DNA from: a virus | Lineage: Duplodnaviria; Heunggongvirae; Uroviricota; Caudoviricetes | Strand: one strand, 5' to 3' | DNA length: 49,704 bases | IMG/VR virus record: IMGVR_UViG_2703718837_000001 | Part shown: positions 12,736 to 26,776 of the stretch, one piece after another | Layout of the letters: each line of letters opens with the position of its first letter | Position numbering within the stretch: position 1 is the first letter of the stretch | Notes under the pieces: generated by a model | Seen by the model: only the letters and a program-made list of their open reading frames with translations | Databases searched by the model: none | What the model was told of the DNA's origin: nothing | Program-made: the position numbers and the translations under genes

Positions 12736-13437
12736 ATGATTGAACAGCAAAAGCAATGGGTGTTTACTGAATTAGTAAAAGACCCCAATAACATCGAGCA
12801 ACTAATTTCATACACGATTTACAAAGGTTTCAAAAATGAAATAGCCGATAATGCTCGTAAGATGGGCAAGACTGAAGATGAGATCAATGAGGAGTTAGCA
12901 AAATATCACAACTATTGCATTAGTTCTCAAAAGCAATTAGATGTTTTTAGAGATAAAGCTAAAAACACTCTTGACGCTTATATTTTCACCGCTAACCATA
13001 ACATGATGAAACGGTTTAATGCGGAAATTATTAAAATAAAAAACAACTATGATAAAGAACTTGAACTAGCGCAAAAAAAGTTAAAAATTGCCGAAAAAAA
13101 AGCATTAAATAAGCTGTCCAAAGGTGCGGTTCTCTACAGCCAAAAAATTAAAGAGCCAGAGCATCTCTGGGATAAAATCCTTGATTTATTGTGGAGACTT
13201 ATGAAGTTTCTGTTCTCTGGCGTACCTAAACTTTTTGCTACTGCATTTTCTGTTGGTCTAATGTTCACAATTTATACAGCTTTCGACGAAGATGCCACGA
13301 CAGGTTTGAGAAAAGGGCTATATAAAATTGTTGATATGACTGTACCAGGAAAAGATATTCACGAAACCACAGATAATATAACCAATAGTGGCACAGAAAA
13401 AATGTCATCTTCAAATTCCCAAGCGCAGCAAGGATAG
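12736..13437 (+). CDS. Hypothetical protein with coiled coil and C-terminal transmembrane helix, AT-rich accessory gene
   Basis: 233 aa; hydrophobic segment LFATAFSVGLMFTIYTAF; Lys-rich helical N-terminal part; no good RBS. Confidence 0.5.
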   Translation: MIEQQKQWVFTELVKDPNNIEQLISYTIYKGFKNEIADNARKMGKTEDEINEELAKYHNYCISSQKQLDVFRDKAKNTLDAYIFTANHNMMKRFNAEIIKIKNNYDKELELAQKKLKIAEKKALNKLSKGAVLYSQKIKEPEHLWDKILDLLWRLMKFLFSGVPKLFATAFSVGLMFTIYTAFDEDATTGLRKGLYKIVDMTVPGKDIHETTDNITNSGTEKMSSSNSQAQQG

Positions 13438-13443
13438 GTGATG

Positions 13444-13872
13444 TTATAAGCCGCGCAGTGATTTCGGCGCGGCAAACGTCTCAATCATCTTTTCCGCGAT
13501 TGCCGACCAGGTGTGACACTGGACCTTTTCAGCATTTTTCACGCGATCAACGCGAGCAATAACCTCATCCCAATCAATCCGCGACTTGATAACCATATGG
13601 TTCACCAAATCCAGGCGATCCGGCGGAAGGCAATCGGGCGGCGTTAATATCAACGCTCCACACATTGCCGCCTCAAGAACAGTTAATCCAAGGCTTTCGG
13701 GATGCGTAACGATAAAAACGTCACTCTTACGCAATTCAGCTGCAAATTCGGTTGCTGGTACCGGCGTCCGTCTGTATGGGGTTACCGATATATTCCCCGG
13801 ATCAATGGTAATCAATCCGTCATCGGTCAACGTTCTGGCCTCATACGGAACGGTCAGACTCTGAAGGTTCAT
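13444..13872 (-). pseudogene. Glycosyltransferase C-terminal-domain fragment (GT-B fold), 5'-truncated
   Basis: 142-aa ORF with ...HPESLGLTVLEAAMCGALILTPP... typical of GT4 C-terminal domains; no N-terminal domain upstream (frame runs into a tRNA-like fragment and then the next gene). Confidence 0.45.
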
Positions 13873-13998
13873 AAGGATACTTAAGGAGTGATCAAAACCA
13901 CTAACATCAAATGCAGCGTGGTCTACAAAAATACGCAGAACATCGTCTGTTTTGGTTTCATCGACGCATGTGCCATACGCCGTACAACTACCAAATAA

Positions 13999-14030
13999 GG
14001 TGTCCCCTACCGGGCTTGAACCGGTGGCTG
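13999..14030 (-). other. tRNA 3'-end-like fragment (T-arm plus acceptor 3' strand)
   Basis: Minus strand reads ACCGG-TTCAAGC-CCGGT-AGGGGAC-A-CC: perfect 5-bp T-stem, canonical 7-nt T-loop, 7-nt acceptor strand; no matching 5' half upstream. Confidence 0.35.
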
Positions 14031-14168
14031 TGCGATTATGATCCCTTTGAAAAATAAATGCAGATCTAATAGGTTGTGTTATTTACTCATTGGCACAGAT
14101 TGCCATTACTTATCTAGTTTTAGCCATTTTTACCGCACTTCATCGCTACTAGCCTATGTTTCTTTATG

Positions 14169-15104
14169 TTAGAATGGTACATTGTCATCCATCTCAAAGT
14201 CTGGGGGTGCAACAGATATTCGATGAATTTCATTTCTTTCCATATCCATCATTTGATCCTCCTGCTCCCCATCATCGTACCACGATGAAGTGTCTACCTC
14301 TAAAGCTTCAGATATGACTTCAAATGTTTCAGGAGAGTCTAAGTGAGAAGCCATGTGCAACGTGAACGGATAACTTTCTTCTAGGCTAACCCCATCATTC
14401 CTAGAACCATATTCTTGAGTAACATAGACAGTACCGGAAGCATATATATTGATGTACTCATCATCAATCGACGTGATTCCAAATTCTTCGACTTCAGTGT
14501 AATCTACATACGCATGATTCGCGATAGTCACTAGGTTTTCAGGCATAGAGCTTACCGCCGTGTCAATAACTGCATTTCTAATTTTATCTTCGAGAGTACG
14601 AATTAATTCATCTCTACAAATATGTATACCATTTAGTATTTCTGTAGCGATCTGCAGTATTTGTTTGGCCTTCAGGAAGAACTCTTGAGGTGATGGATGC
14701 ATATATTTCTCTGTTATATGCGTATATTTATTTAAGAAGAAATAAAGCTTAAGCATCTCATCTATTCTTTCATTCGACTCCTCCAGGAACTCTTCCCCCA
14801 AGTACGCATCTGAAATTTTAGCTTGAGAACAGTATTTTAAACGCTGTCTTCTAGATATTTCGTAATGTTCATGTTCTCTCTTATACCACGATGCTTGTAA
14901 TAATTTATCATTCGGAGATTTTTTCTCGATAATATGCTTTATTAGCTCGCGAATTGAAAATGCAAAGTTATGAAAACGTAATGGGTTGCCATGTGATGCA
15001 TAATTTCGCAAACAAGCTGTGAATAATTCTTTTTCAAAATCAGCTTCGAGGTGACTCATAAAATCATTCACAAAATCAAGAGATTGTAGTTTTTTAAGCT
15101 TCAT
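14169..15104 (-). CDS. Hypothetical protein with SSB-like acidic C-terminal tip (…PPDFEMDDNVPF)
   Basis: 311 aa; AT-rich; helical N-terminal part with no OB-fold signature; last residues resemble the E. coli SSB tail PPMDFDDDIPF. Confidence 0.6.
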   Translation of the reverse strand: MKLKKLQSLDFVNDFMSHLEADFEKELFTACLRNYASHGNPLRFHNFAFSIRELIKHIIEKKSPNDKLLQASWYKREHEHYEISRRQRLKYCSQAKISDAYLGEEFLEESNERIDEMLKLYFFLNKYTHITEKYMHPSPQEFFLKAKQILQIATEILNGIHICRDELIRTLEDKIRNAVIDTAVSSMPENLVTIANHAYVDYTEVEEFGITSIDDEYINIYASGTVYVTQEYGSRNDGVSLEESYPFTLHMASHLDSPETFEVISEALEVDTSSWYDDGEQEDQMMDMERNEIHRISVAPPDFEMDDNVPF

Positions 15105-15914
15105 CGTGTAACCTTATATTCCTGTCTCAGATTTAATATCGGATTCAACCGAATCCTCTTCTTCTAAATTTTAAAGTCGTGTAACATTACAAAATATTCA
15201 AGGTTAAATTGAACATATATCATTGTTATTTAGATGTAAGTATATCTGAGCACTCGTTACAATACCAGAATATTACCATCATTCATCATAAAGTAACTAG
15301 CGAAGGTGTGGCGGAAACGTAAGTAAGTTGTTCTCCAGGTAATTCAATACCTGTTCTTTCTAAATAGCTGCGCGGAATAGTGATCTACTTTCGTCCGCCC
15401 TTGCAGGGCGAGACATTAGGTCGGCGTCCCCTACCTGACCGTGCTGCATCAGGCTTGAGTGTGTTGCCCATATGCAACATACCACACATCAGTAAACGGC
15501 AAGTGTAGTAGTATTAGGCGCAGAAATTTAGTACAGCCCAGAATGCGCCGTAACAATCAATAAACCACTACACCCGCGCCCTGGCTGCAATTCGGTAACA
15601 GGGGATCCCCCCTAGCTTCCAGCGTGATTAGCGCCTTCAGCATGACGGAATATACCCGTAAATACGAGGAACTCTACCCAAAGGCTGTTAAGAACCGGCT
15701 GTTACGCTGAATGAAAAAGGACGTAACAGGTAAGGACGCTGACCAGAAGATGGCCCCTTCTCGTTCATCTGGTTAATCAAACCAGCGCCCTTGCCTGTTA
15801 TGCCTCCTCGTTCCCTAATACACAGACGGGGACAACCCCGTGGTGTCAGGCTTCTTAGGCCGCAACCATCATCAGATCATCGTTTGCATTTACTTTAATG
15901 GTCAGTTTGTGACT

Positions 15915-17235
15915 GCTCCCCGCCCTGTCGGGCGAGGCTTCCCACTTCTCAGGCCACTACCGTCTGTGCGACGGATTTACGCTGGCCTCCATGGGCGGAG
16001 ACGACGAGTCCCGCCGCCTGTAGTTCCAGTATTCCTTTTTGCCGGATGTTGAGTGCCGCATTGATATCGCGGTCGTGCTCTGCTCCACATTCAGGGCATC
16101 GCCAGATGCGTTTATGAAGCGGCATTTCCGGCATTTTGTAACCACAACAATAGCAGGCTTTCGAACTGGCAAACCACTGGTCGAGTTTTACTAGGTGAAC
16201 GCCTTTTTCCGCTGCCTTGTACTCCAGCTTTGTGATGAAGCTATGCCAGCCTGCATCACCTATCGCTCTTGCCAGATTGTGGTTTTTCATCATGTTGGCT
16301 GTTTTCAGCGTCTCGACAATTACCGCTTGGTTTTCGTCAACAATTGCACGAGAGAGCTTGTGTTGAAAATCAGCACGGGCATTAGCCACCCGTTCGTGTA
16401 ACGCTGCCAGACGGATTGTGGCCTTTTTACGATTCGCGCTTCCCTTTTGCTTGCGGGATAAGGCTTTTTGTTTGCGTCGCAGATTACGGCTGGCATTGAT
16501 GAGATGGCGGGGATTTGCAATTTTTACCCCATCAGACTTGATGGCAAAGTGCGATAATCCCATATCTAGGCCAGTAACTGTTGATATCAACGTGGGTTTT
16601 GCCGGAGCTTCCATGCCATCATCACAGAGAATTGAAGCATAGTATTTCCCCGTTGCTGAACAGGTGATAGTGATGCTTTTCAGCTTTCCATGAAGTTCAC
16701 GGTGAAGGCGTGCTTCTATTAGGGACAGTTTTGGGATTTTGATGGCATTATCCAGCACCTTAATCCCGACACAGTGATAGCTCGATTGTTTTCCGTGTTT
16801 ACGTTTAAACGTCGGGAACCGCGCTTTCAGCTTCGGATTAAAAAAGTTGGAAAATGCCACATCAAGATTAATTACCGCCTGTTGCAACGCAATAGAATCA
16901 TATTCTTTAAGCCATCCATACCTGCGGGATTTCTTTGCCACTGCAAGCAGCGGTTTCAGATCGTTACGCGGACTTAAATTTACTCCATGTCGCTGGTAAG
17001 CATGTTTTTTGATGTGAAGAGCTTTGTTGTACGCAAAGCGCACTGCACCGAACTGGGCATTGAGGTACTCTGCCTGTTCTGGTGTCGGGTAAATGCGTAC
17101 TTTTGTTGCTCTTAACATAGTCACCGCTCATTGATACAGGCTTTTTATGCTAACACCGTAATGATTTTTTTAAAGCCCTGTTGGCTTTTCGCCTTATATA
17201 CCCGCCCGCATTAGGCGAGGGTTTACGGCGTTTTT
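15915..17235 (-). mobile_element. IS200/IS605-family element carrying tnpB only (boundaries approximate)
   Basis: Intact tnpB flanked by similar GC hairpins of the CCGCCC-loop-GGGCGAG type at 15925-15940 and 17196-17216; no tnpA. Confidence 0.55.
15949..17124 (-). CDS. tnpB: TnpB (OrfB) RuvC-like RNA-guided endonuclease homologue
   Basis: 391 aa; N-terminal MLRATKVRIYPTPEQAEYLNAQFGAVRFAYNKAL; RuvC-I D in TGLDMGL, RuvC-II E in IVETLK, zinc finger CYCCG...CPECG, RuvC-III D in HDRDINAALNI. Confidence 0.9.
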   Translation of the reverse strand: MTMLRATKVRIYPTPEQAEYLNAQFGAVRFAYNKALHIKKHAYQRHGVNLSPRNDLKPLLAVAKKSRRYGWLKEYDSIALQQAVINLDVAFSNFFNPKLKARFPTFKRKHGKQSSYHCVGIKVLDNAIKIPKLSLIEARLHRELHGKLKSITITCSATGKYYASILCDDGMEAPAKPTLISTVTGLDMGLSHFAIKSDGVKIANPRHLINASRNLRRKQKALSRKQKGSANRKKATIRLAALHERVANARADFQHKLSRAIVDENQAVIVETLKTANMMKNHNLARAIGDAGWHSFITKLEYKAAEKGVHLVKLDQWFASSKACYCCGYKMPEMPLHKRIWRCPECGAEHDRDINAALNIRQKGILELQAAGLVVSAHGGQRKSVAQTVVA

Positions 17236-17470
17236 CGCTAAACCGCCGCAAAGTCGCTAACCATGACGAAACCTCTGAAAAAAATGCCCACCCGAAGATG
17301 GGCAAACTGGATGGAAGCTCGTTACGCACTTCGGAGTTGCCTCTTAGGCGCATGGTCAACCTGGCAACTCGGTGGTTTGTCTGGGAGGACTAGGCCCAGC
17401 CATGCTTACCGCCGCGCCTGTCGCGGCTAACAGCTAAATCGCTCTAAAAATCACGATTCATTGATTCGAT

Positions 17471-20530: not shown

Positions 20531-21432
20531 TGCTTAGCCTCTCCGCCCAGGGCATTTACCAGAGCATCAACCAGGCACGAAATTTCACTGGTTAACAGGA
20601 AGAAATCTGCGTCCAGTCGCTGCGCAACATCTTCACTATCAATATCAGAGTTCTGCTCAAGCAATTCATCCGCAAATTTGACGCTGGTAAGGCTGAAGTT
20701 ATGGTCCAGTGTAAATTTAATGCGGTTCTGCCAGTCGAGTGCCAACTTTGTGACGAGCTTGCCAGCTTCCAGGTGTGTGGAAATTTCATCGCTTCCCAAA
20801 TCCTGCTTTTTCACTCGGGCGATACCGCCATCCTCAAGCACTGCCTTAAGTTCTGCCGCATCCCCCATTTGAAATCCCTGTGGAGCACTACCATCACGTA
20901 CCCAGTCGGTCAGCGTTAATTCAATGGGATTTTCAACACTCAGGGGAACAACAGGAAGAGAACCCAGAGATTTACGCATAAGCGCGAGCATATCCTCTGC
21001 CTGCCGCGCGCTGGCATTGATATAGATACGTTTAGTTGAACCGTCGTAGATCGCCTGGATAACAGAAAACTTTGAAAAAGCCCGTGGCAGAAGAGAATGC
21101 AGAACTTCGTCTTTCAGGGAGTCCTTCTCTATTTTCTTCAGTTTACGCGCTTGTTCTTGCTCAAGTTTTTCAATTTTTTCTTGAATAGCTCGCTGGATAA
21201 CCGGCGGGGGAAGAATTTTTGTTTCGCGCTTTGCTTCAACAAGGATAAAGCCATTTCCATGCATAGCGATCACTTCGGAATTATCACCAAATGGCGATAC
21301 AAAACCGAACTTGGCCATATCCTGGCTACCGCATGGCGTGAATAGGATCATTTTATTTTTATCTTCTAAGTCGGTCAGATCCGCCTCACGAGAAACTTTA
21401 TAAATAGAAATGTTTTTCCAGTGCTTAAACAT
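20527..21432 (-). CDS. rdgC: RdgC-family recombination-associated protein homologue
   Basis: Colinear with E. coli RdgC ([62 protein letters not shown]...ALGGEAKQ); start placed at the second Met by alignment. Confidence 0.85.
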
Positions 21433-25570: not shown

Positions 25571-26776
25571 ATGAAACGCGATTACGGCGGTGTTGGCACC
25601 ATAGCTCTTCGTGCAAGCGCATTACTTAAGGCCATGAGTCAGGATATTGAAGATCAGCGCAAAGAGTTCAATCAGACCGAGTATTATCAGACGTTCACTC
25701 GTAACGCTGTGGCAAAGTTGCCGAAGCTGAGCCGCCGCATTGTGGAGCAGGCCATCAAAGAGATGGAAGATGATGGGTACCAGTTCAACAAGAAACAGGT
25801 CGGTAACGTTGAACAGTACGCGCTGACCATCCAGAACGTCATTGATATCTATGCCCACCGTAAGATCCCCAAATATCGCGACATTCACAAATCGCCTTAC
25901 GTTATTTTTGTCGTAAACCTGAAGGGTGGCGTATCCAAAACGGTTTCCACAGTCACGTTGGCGCACGCTCTGCGTGTGCATCAGGATTTACTGCGTCACG
26001 ATCTGCGCATTCTGGTAATTGACCTTGACCCTCAGGCATCCAGCACAATGTTCCTCGACCATACTCACAGTATTGGTTCCATCCTGGAAACCGCCGCGCA
26101 GGCGATGCTGAACGACCTGGACGCGGAGACGCTACGCAAAGAGGTGATTCGTCCGACCATCGTTCCTGGCGTAGACGTGATTCCAGCCTCTATCGACGAT
26201 GGCTTTGTTGCCAGCCAATGGAAAGAGCTGGTTGAAGAGCATCTTCCCGGACAAAATCAGTACGAAATCCTTCGACGCAATATCATTGATCGTGTTGCGG
26301 ATGATTATGACTTTATCTTTATTGATACCGGTCCACACCTGGATCCGTTCCTGCTCAACGGTCTGGCGGCCAGCGATTTGCTGCTTACCCCTACCCCACC
26401 AGCCCAGGTTGACTTCCACTCAACACTGAAATATCTCACCCGTCTGCCAGAAATGCTGGAGCAACTGGAGGAGGAAGGCGTAGAACCGCGTTTGAGCGCC
26501 AGCATTGGTTTTATGTCGAAGATGACCGGCAAGCGCGATCACGAGACATCACACAGCCTTGCGCGTGAGGTTTACGCCAGCAACATTCTGGACTCTTCTC
26601 TGCCTCGTCTGGATGGCTTTGAGCGATGTGGCGAGTCTTTCGACACCGTAATCAGTGCCAACCCGCAATCGTATCCAGGCAGTGCAGAGGCGCTGAAGAA
26701 GGCACGAACCGAGGCCGAGCGTTTCACTAAGGCTGTGTTTGATCGAATTGAGTTTGTTAGGGGTGAGGCGGCATGA
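25571..26776 (+). CDS. parA: Partition ATPase ParA (type Ia, Walker-type)
   Basis: Deviant Walker A NLKGGVSKTVST, VIDLDPQ, C-terminal LPRLDGFERCGESFDTVISANP...KAVFDRIEF; start set to the third ATG (spacing to AAGGAG); track ORF starts at 25565. Confidence 0.9.
   Translation: MKRDYGGVGTIALRASALLKAMSQDIEDQRKEFNQTEYYQTFTRNAVAKLPKLSRRIVEQAIKEMEDDGYQFNKKQVGNVEQYALTIQNVIDIYAHRKIPKYRDIHKSPYVIFVVNLKGGVSKTVSTVTLAHALRVHQDLLRHDLRILVIDLDPQASSTMFLDHTHSIGSILETAAQAMLNDLDAETLRKEVIRPTIVPGVDVIPASIDDGFVASQWKELVEEHLPGQNQYEILRRNIIDRVADDYDFIFIDTGPHLDPFLLNGLAASDLLLTPTPPAQVDFHSTLKYLTRLPEMLEQLEEEGVEPRLSASIGFMSKMTGKRDHETSHSLAREVYASNILDSSLPRLDGFERCGESFDTVISANPQSYPGSAEALKKARTEAERFTKAVFDRIEFVRGEAA

Follow-up and report, generated by a model that had tools for sequence, protein, structure and literature searches.

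The window, that is, the whole 49,704-nucleotide stretch of IMG/VR virus record IMGVR_UViG_2703718837_000001, is a P1-like phage-plasmid, the greater part of which is collinear with phage P1 (NC_005856) and 95-98% identical to it. We examined the region where P1 carries the isoleucine tRNA gene trnI followed by ban and dbn, and where the window holds a truncated glycosyltransferase gene, half of a tRNA gene and a block of foreign DNA. Sequence comparisons indicate that this region is very probably (roughly 85%) a non-functional scar, left when a phage related to coliphage 186 integrated into trnI of the P1-like element and was then mostly deleted. The feature itself is of a known kind, the tRNA-half footprint of an element with a tyrosine integrase (Int), in a location that is unusual for it, namely a tRNA gene of a P1-like phage-plasmid. 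It reveals no new mechanism, as footprints of half a tRNA and the decayed ends of prophages are textbook material.

A tRNA half joined to 186-like DNA at the trnI locus

Apart from one block, the features of the region lie on the minus strand. Read on this strand, the order of genes in P1 is trnA, trnT, (plp, upl), tciA, tciB, tciC, trnI, ban, dbn. Window positions 13451-13959 corresponded to P1 73647-73139, 13962-14041 to P1 71044-70965 and 15574-15908 to P1 69292-68923, while 14042-15573 (1,532 bp) was foreign and replaced the P1 sequence upstream of tRNA nt 33. Compared with the trnI-ban-dbn segment of P1 (70933-73657), the window keeps trnI nt 33-76, the 36-nt spacer and dbn codons 161-331, in P1 order and orientation, but lacks trnI nt 1-32, the entire ban gene and the first 160 codons of dbn, and upstream also trnA, trnT, plp, upl and tciABC. 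The features are as follows.

13444-13959, minus: dbn' pseudogene, codons 161-331 and stop of the P1 Dbn / P7 Glt glycosyltransferase of family 4 (GT4)
13960-13961, minus: deletion junction AT, trnI 3' flank joined to dbn codon 161
13962-13997, minus: P1-type spacer of 36 nt, 3' of trnI, aligned to P1 71044-71009
13998-14041, minus: trnI' remnant, nt 33-76 of a P1-family tRNA-Ile(CAU) gene, 44 nt
14042-14168, minus: P' (int-proximal) arm of a 186-like attP, 127 bp, from blastn to 186 and alignment to Klebsiella prophages
14169-15104, minus: intact cargo gene for a pPIWI-associating nuclease of 311 amino acids, from Pfam and PADLOC, in the orf69 slot of 186
15105-15377, minus: int' pseudogene, ~residues 258-333 (C-terminal catalytic part) of a tyrosine integrase of the 186 type, frameshifted and broken by in-frame stops
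15378-15537, no strand: unrelated block of 160 nt interrupting int', 77% identical to non-coding DNA of Shigella phage SfII
15538-15573, minus: second short int' piece (~residues 250-263), from blastn to nt 753-780 of the int gene of a 186-like prophage (L009) and tblastn (FIDCYGAFWAVL)

The tRNA remnant, trnI', starts in the anticodon loop and comprises the anticodon CAT, the 3' strand of the anticodon stem, the variable loop, the T arm (ACCGG-TTCAAGC-CCGGT, 14025 to 14009 on the minus strand), the acceptor 3' strand (AGGGGAC, 14008 to 14002) and a terminal A-CCT (14001 to 13998), with CCT instead of CCA. By blastn, 13962-14041 was equivalent to trnI of P1 (tRNA-Ile2, anticodon CAT, P1 70933-71008) from nt 33 to its 3' end, together with 36 nt beyond. 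Identity to trnI and flank was 87.5% over 80 nt (E=2e-19) for the P1-family phages listed, which included P1, P7, SJ46, RCS47 and others, and 86.3% for phage D6. Because 80 nt match a known tRNA gene and its 3' flank at this E-value, trnI' is by homology a genuine remnant and not a chance hairpin. ARAGORN reported no tRNA in the whole window and Rfam gave no tRNA match in 13300-14300 even at E<=10; we attribute this silence to trnI' being merely a 44-nt half gene, and it was the blastn alignment that identified it. The acceptor 5' strand, the D arm and the second strand of the anticodon stem that would complete a cloverleaf are missing, as nt 33-76 alone align. A first-pass annotation of this DNA had recognised the perfect T arm and acceptor 3' strand without a 5' half, both of which are present at 14025 to 14002, but had put the fragment at 27-32 nt, which is too short. 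Its suggestion that the fragment was a relic of a phage-borne tRNA gene agreed with the match to P1 trnI.

The 186 record describes a truncated tRNA-Ile within attP and 36 nt that are common to attB, 'in the 3' end of ileY'. It places the predicted crossover at 21023-21029, in a heptamer (CTCATAA when read along the tRNA) that coincides with the anticodon loop. The remainder of this core, TCATAA, is found at 14041-14036, inside the anticodon loop of trnI'. In two alignments (A1 and A2), the window was 186-like up to the anticodon loop and P1-like from TCATAATCGCAC on, including the P1-specific 3' spacer. Over nt 43-76 the window matched P1 at 29/34 positions, 186 at 23/34 and ileY at 22/34, and its T stem, ACCGG/CCGGT, was of the P1 type and not GCTGG/CCAGC. 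The change of parent is thus confined to 11 nt common to both parents, CTCATAATCGC, which contain the annotated 7-nt crossover of 186. P1 trnI was identical to ileY over the entire anticodon stem-loop (GGCGA-CTCATAA-TCGC), with one difference in the 5' half, and therefore offers the same core to a 186-type Int. Phage 186 integrates into tRNA-Ile (the ileY and ileX positions of MG1655), and integrases of its type show a preference for tRNA genes (PMC3448106).

On the other side of the switch point, the layout of the window was that of 186, whose record places after the crossover a site for integration host factor (IHF), five Apl sites, two Int arm-type sites, orf69, int and cI, all of them on the strand that encodes the tRNA. 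By blastn, 13993-14146 matched 186 attP 20980-21142 at 70.3% (E=1e-10), a match that spanned the annotated Int, Apl and IHF sites, and the arm was likewise recognisable by its similarity to the Klebsiella prophages. Degenerate Int arm-type repeats were present at ~14119-14151 (TAGTAGCGATG, AAGT-GCGGTA and AAATGGCTAAA; consensus RARTGGCGRTR), and each of them was damaged by a mismatch or by the loss of 1 nt when set against RARTGGCGRTR of the relatives. The attP of 186-type elements has its tRNA copy downstream of int and on the same strand, and the 3' half displaced from the target therefore comes to lie at the int-proximal end once the element has integrated. A displaced 3' half in that position was seen both in the window and in the Klebsiella prophages.

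A cognate integrase gene, now a non-functional remnant, lies beside the arm and on the same strand. By blastn, int' showed 76-78% DNA identity to integrase genes of 186/P2-like phages, with 77% to 186 int and 72% to nt 775-1019 of the int gene of L009. When 186 Int was used as the tblastn query, int' spanned residues 252-332 with in-frame stops and a frameshift, and the Prokaryotic Genome Annotation Pipeline (PGAP) described it as 'site-specific integrase, frameshifted, incomplete'. The window could be aligned without a break to the ends of Klebsiella prophages from 15377 to 13999 (81.5% over ~1.39 kb), from the 3' end of int through the tRNA half. Homologues of the cargo protein, 89% identical in Klebsiella and 70% in Yersinia alsatica, are encoded next after int by the terminal gene of complete 186-like prophages, and the gene order in those relatives was gpA ... 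Fil, CII, Apl, CI, Int, pP_pnuc, host genes. The footprint of an integrase-mediated insertion, which the first-pass annotation had offered as an alternative to a phage tRNA relic, is thus apparent in the tRNA half that abuts a 186-like P' arm, cargo gene and int pseudogene, with the switch at the annotated crossover. The comparisons support both of its alternatives as correct together. The outcome that would have spoken against them, no matching tRNA alongside an intact short glycosyltransferase with a start of its own, was not seen, as trnI matches the fragment and the short ORF begins at an internal Met that no Shine-Dalgarno sequence precedes.

The cargo protein matched Pfam families pP_pnuc_1 and pP_pnuc_2 (118.7 and 115.5 bits; 1.8e-34 and 2.1e-33) and, over its full length, the PADLOC model Aga_Nuclease (2.3e-62). 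No Argonaute or PIWI gene neighboured it: its neighbours were int' and the att arm here, and int and host genes in Klebsiella and Yersinia. As the gene is intact and 99-100% conserved across many contigs, its sequence suggests retention by selection, and it may be a stand-alone defence or moron gene. A tblastn search with this pP_pnuc protein against 50,697 phage records gave no match.

The glycosyltransferase sequence next to the tRNA half was traced to dbn ('downstream of ban'), a possible glycosyltransferase gene of P1 whose name in P7 is glt and which PGAP labels 'glycosyltransferase family 4'. Megablast aligned 13462/13474-13959 with the 3' part of P1 dbn, and blastn aligned 13451-13959 with P1 73647-73139 at 95.3%. 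By tblastn with intact proteins, codons 161-331 of the 331/332-residue Dbn/GT4 protein were retained, with 167/171 identities (98%) to the intact GT4 on the E. albertii plasmid p2RM15116 and 95% identity to P1 Dbn. The Pfam Glycos_transf_1 match was borderline (26.3 bits against a cut-off of 26.4) and covered profile positions 83-169 of 172 only; homology to GT4 is nonetheless certain because the remnant is 98% identical to an intact protein. The open reading frame (ORF) had been described in the first-pass annotation as the C-terminal half of a GT-B glycosyltransferase, and both the tblastn and the Pfam matches were limited to that distal half. P1 keeps trnI, ban and dbn intact, and in sister plasmids PGAP annotates dbn' as a glycosyltransferase pseudogene, 'incomplete, missing N-terminus'. 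We regard dbn' as dead.

Two further junctions mark where P1 sequence is missing. The ban/dbn deletion corresponds to P1 71045-73138 (2,094 bp), has its endpoint 36 nt downstream of the tRNA, and took the complete ban gene and 480 nt from the start of dbn; a three-way comparison of the window with both P1 sides found no useful microhomology at this junction. At the left junction (15573/15574), int nt ~745 is joined without homology to P1 69292, where P1 homology resumes at 15574. The first-pass annotation had read the truncated glycosyltransferase gene and the tRNA fragment as one scar of an insertion or deletion. This holds for the integration at trnI but not for the glycosyltransferase, whose truncation was due to the separate 2,094-bp deletion. 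In the table retrieved from a P1 CRISPR interference screen, trnT, plp, upl, tciABC, trnI, ban and dbn are listed as non-essential (PMC10695390), and such deletions would therefore be tolerated.

Distribution of the scar and neighbouring sequences

The foreign segment was found in 24 PLSDB plasmids, all from Escherichia (including E. fergusonii) save one from Klebsiella. In these the match ran from the 3' part of dbn through the foreign DNA, and all carried the dbn truncation and the same junctions. The 3' region of dbn was present in 471 PLSDB plasmids, so that the scar sublineage accounts for 24/471, and the foreign segment also occurred in 18 of 5,426 complete E. coli genomes. The core junction was identical in all five IMG/VR contigs, and the deletion junction in four of the five, those whose fetched sequence reaches it. 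Both junctions were checked and found identical in two plasmids (L005 and L006) that represent sublineages ~4% apart (95.8% identity).

Intermediates were sought in PLSDB, IMG/VR, GTDB genomes and JGI metagenomes. None of these held a P1-like replicon with the scar and an intact ban-dbn. A hybrid tRNA with P1 flank, trnI 5' half and 186-type 3' half had no matches in IMG/VR, GTDB genomes or JGI metagenomes; against PLSDB, the chimeric BLAST query found pJIE250_3 only, which has a converted trnI without a prophage. A tblastn search of plasmids with the Klebsiella Int gave no P1-like plasmid with an intact copy. One Int match, on a 67-kb Enterobacter 'plasmid', was considered as a P1-like carrier and rejected, as its flanks were chromosome-like type VI secretion genes and not P1 genes. 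Likewise, no intact tRNA with the T-arm/acceptor variant of the window, ACCGGTTCAAGCCCGGTAGGGGAC, was found; the variant occurred only in the five IMG/VR contigs with the identical scar and in 0 GTDB species genomes. A limited literature search found no published account of the scar or of 186-like integration into P1 trnI; what it yielded was confined to the data on 186 and ileY and on the essentiality of P1 genes.

The trnI of pJIE250_3 (L024, NZ_MN510445.1; an IncY P1-like plasmid) lies at 9108-9190 and has a body of the ileX/186 type from nt 26 to CCA+1 between normal P1 flanks. It shows A26, TTGGTCGCTGG...CCAGC and CCAAAT, and ban and dbn are intact. This gene looks like the product of gene conversion with chromosomal ileX/Y, or like the footprint of a 186-like integration that was subsequently lost. 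Judging from this one plasmid, trnI does exchange sequence with ileX/Y-type DNA.

The P1 backbone on either side of the foreign DNA was unusually diverged from P1, with 82% identity at 15574-15908 and 87.5% at 13962-14041 as opposed to 95-98% across the rest of the window. This pattern points to an unsampled, divergent allele of the entire tRNA/tci module rather than to decay alone.

Several other differences from P1 were noted in the vicinity. Between P1 gene 5 and dbn, the window has two plus-strand ORFs of 130 and 233 amino acids (12285-12677 and 12736-13437; phrog_34496 and phrog_25194), which are also found in E. albertii p2RM15116 (L002) and are absent from P1 and from plasmid pMB7206_1 (L006). 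At 15909-17237 an IS200/IS605-family insertion sequence with a TnpB ORF of 391 amino acids (15949-17124, minus strand) is inserted at P1 68922/68923; it too is absent from pMB7206_1. As pMB7206_1 carries the scar without the 12285-13437 ORFs and without the TnpB element, these are separate events that do not track with the scar. A weak Rfam match to 'tmRNA_permuted' (15855-15946, minus strand; 29.9 bits against a gathering score of 47) covers the 3' end of tnpB and the end of the insertion sequence, and is probably the structured end of that element and not a tmRNA. The 160-nt block that interrupts int' was 72.5% identical to the single-copy intA-yfjH intergenic DNA of the CP4-57 prophage of E. 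coli K-12. The possibility that it was a multicopy miniature inverted-repeat transposable element was rejected, as there were one, at most two copies per genome, beside intA of CP4-57. The parA/parB region (25817-26755) was ~64% identical to that of P1, which suggests that the partition or incompatibility type of the window differs from that of P1 itself.

A proposed history and its alternatives

We propose that a temperate 186-like (P2-family) phage, by means of its tyrosine integrase, entered the anticodon loop of trnI on a P1-like phage-plasmid. The original 3' half of trnI would have been displaced to the int-proximal end, giving the order int, cargo gene, P' arm, crossover core, trnI 3' half and P1 flank. 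A large deletion (~30 kb) would then have begun within int (~nt 745) and taken out the rest of the prophage together with the reconstituted tRNA and P1 69293-70964 (tciCBA, upl, plp, trnT and trnA). A second deletion, of 2.1 kb, would have started 36 nt past the tRNA half and removed ban and the first 160 codons of dbn; the two deletions presumably took place in this order. P1 packages its DNA by the headful, and a genome enlarged by ~30 kb would exceed the headful and lose its terminal redundancy. On general grounds, deletion derivatives should therefore have been under strong selection. Judged by their sequences, dbn', trnI', the att arm and int' are now all dead, and the pPIWI-associated-nuclease gene is the sole intact survivor.

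Integration is the favoured reading because of the arm homology, the switch at the 186 crossover, the native gene order cI-int-pP_pnuc-end and the suitable target. From the position and context of the junction we infer an Int-catalysed event on the plasmid itself; this falls short of proof because the exchange point lies anywhere within the shared 11 nt.

A number of observations weigh against this history. The partner junction that it predicts, a reconstituted hybrid tRNA beside the other att arm (the P1 tciC-trnI 5' half fused to TCGCTTGGTCGCTGG and a 186-type P arm), was absent from the window, in which there was no second match to the 186 att region. The four collections searched yielded no P1-like replicon whose trnI holds an intact 186-like prophage. 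Position 32 of the tRNA has a changed or missing base, the Int arm-type repeats have degenerated, and the exchange point can be resolved no finer than the 11 nt common to both parents. In addition, trnI' and its flank are 12.5% diverged from all sampled P1-family trnI genes, beyond the divergence of the neighbouring backbone, and the exact parent allele is unsampled among these genes. The damaged arm repeats, the altered position 32 and the change from CCA to CCT are consistent with decay.

Integration may instead have occurred in a chromosome, to give a 186-like prophage in ileX or ileY whose int-proximal junction subsequently reached the P1-like plasmid as a copy, through recombination (homologous or illegitimate) at the short tRNA homology. 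P1 trnI and chromosomal ileY/ileX are close enough to recombine, and pJIE250_3, with its trnI body converted to the ileX/186 type between intact P1 flanks and no prophage, is an example of such a change. However, the P1-type sequence from nt 43 and the 36-nt flank would force the exchange into the same 11-nt identity as the Int crossover, and the left end (int nt ~745/P1 69292), being without homology, would require an extra illegitimate event. We therefore consider a chromosomal origin unlikely. Still less probable is a history with no site-specific event, in which random illegitimate insertion or deletion replaced the trnI 5' half and its neighbours and happened to end in the tRNA. The other two junctions (13959/13962 and 15573/15574) are indeed plain illegitimate deletions without microhomology, but here the breakpoint falls exactly at the annotated 186 crossover, and the adjoining DNA is the cognate att arm followed by the cargo gene and int in native order and orientation, which would not be expected by chance. 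The homology of the arm and of int effectively refutes such an origin.

The explanation to which we give the least credence dispenses with a scar altogether, and takes the ORF of 142 amino acids (13444..13872, minus strand) for a glycosyltransferase C-domain protein that functions by itself, and the tRNA-like hairpin for its regulatory element or terminator. The ORF is intact and 98% identical to its full-length relatives, and, as the first-pass annotation had observed, the frame runs farther upstream into the tRNA-like sequence, where it is open to ~14084. Against this, the ATG of the ORF is the internal Met190 of full-length Dbn, no Shine-Dalgarno sequence was found ahead of it (the preceding sequence is GATCACTCCTTAAGTATCCTT), and the open upstream part of the frame contains no ATG, GTG or TTG start, so that a translation start of its own is lacking. 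The GT-B fold requires two Rossmann-like domains and the N-terminal, acceptor-binding one is missing; PGAP labels the gene a pseudogene. Moreover, the fold of the tRNA remnant was not unusually stable (z = -1.4) and no minus-strand terminator was predicted; promoter and terminator scans and folding of the remnant gave nothing above shuffled expectation.

Significance and comparison with known integrative elements

Integration into trnI followed by deletion would account for the puzzling pseudogene or absent annotations (glycosyltransferase, tRNA half and integrase fragment) in a sublineage that recurs among P1-like plasmids and has lost ban, the tci operon and all three P1 tRNA genes. It would also be a concrete case of a temperate phage landing in a tRNA gene of another mobile element and moving a candidate defence gene between phage families. 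A broader notion, which we regard as rather less likely than not, is that P1-family tRNA genes are real attachment sites for 186-like phages ('phage inside a phage'), and that integration with size-restoring deletions is a route by which P2/186-like cargo is captured. If so, the cargo captured here would be a solo Argonaute-associated nuclease, which many plasmids keep intact and which may serve in defence by itself.

The scar resembles the direct repeats of tRNA 3' halves made by tRNA-targeting integrative elements in that a displaced half starting in the anticodon loop stands at one end of the insert, and differs from them in that only one of the two repeats survives in the window. Among such elements, an anticodon-loop sublocation class was reportedly distinguished by Williams in 2002.

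The 186-like prophages of Klebsiella aerogenes, Klebsiella michiganensis and Yersinia alsatica (L009-L013) share with the window the same module of int 3' end, pP_pnuc, arm and tRNA-Ile 3' half. Their prophage ends are complete, have int, cI, apl, cII, fil and gpA in intact form, and are joined to tRNA halves of the ileX/Y type and host flanks, whereas the window is P1-type from the anticodon stem onward. In the Yersinia alsatica sequence (L013), the DNA downstream of the tRNA half (4299-4540) resembles the other (P) arm of 186 attP, including the terminator hairpin, and not host DNA, and may indicate tandem or remnant elements there.

A close likeness is also seen to the int-proximal junction of 186 (Eganvirus, Peduoviridae) at E. 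coli ileY/ileX, which in 186 usage is attL, as Apl 'binds to attL' and has its sites on that arm. Both junctions have the crossover in the CTCATAA anticodon loop of tRNA-Ile(CAU), RARTGGCGRTR-type repeats, a gene between the arm and int, and int on the strand of the displaced tRNA 3' half. They differ in that the target in the window is a tRNA gene on a P1-like phage-plasmid and not on a chromosome; in that the int of the window is a wreck of ~85 codons, its arm sites are degenerate, and the partner junction and prophage body are gone; and in that the place of orf69 in 186 is taken by the pP_pnuc gene.

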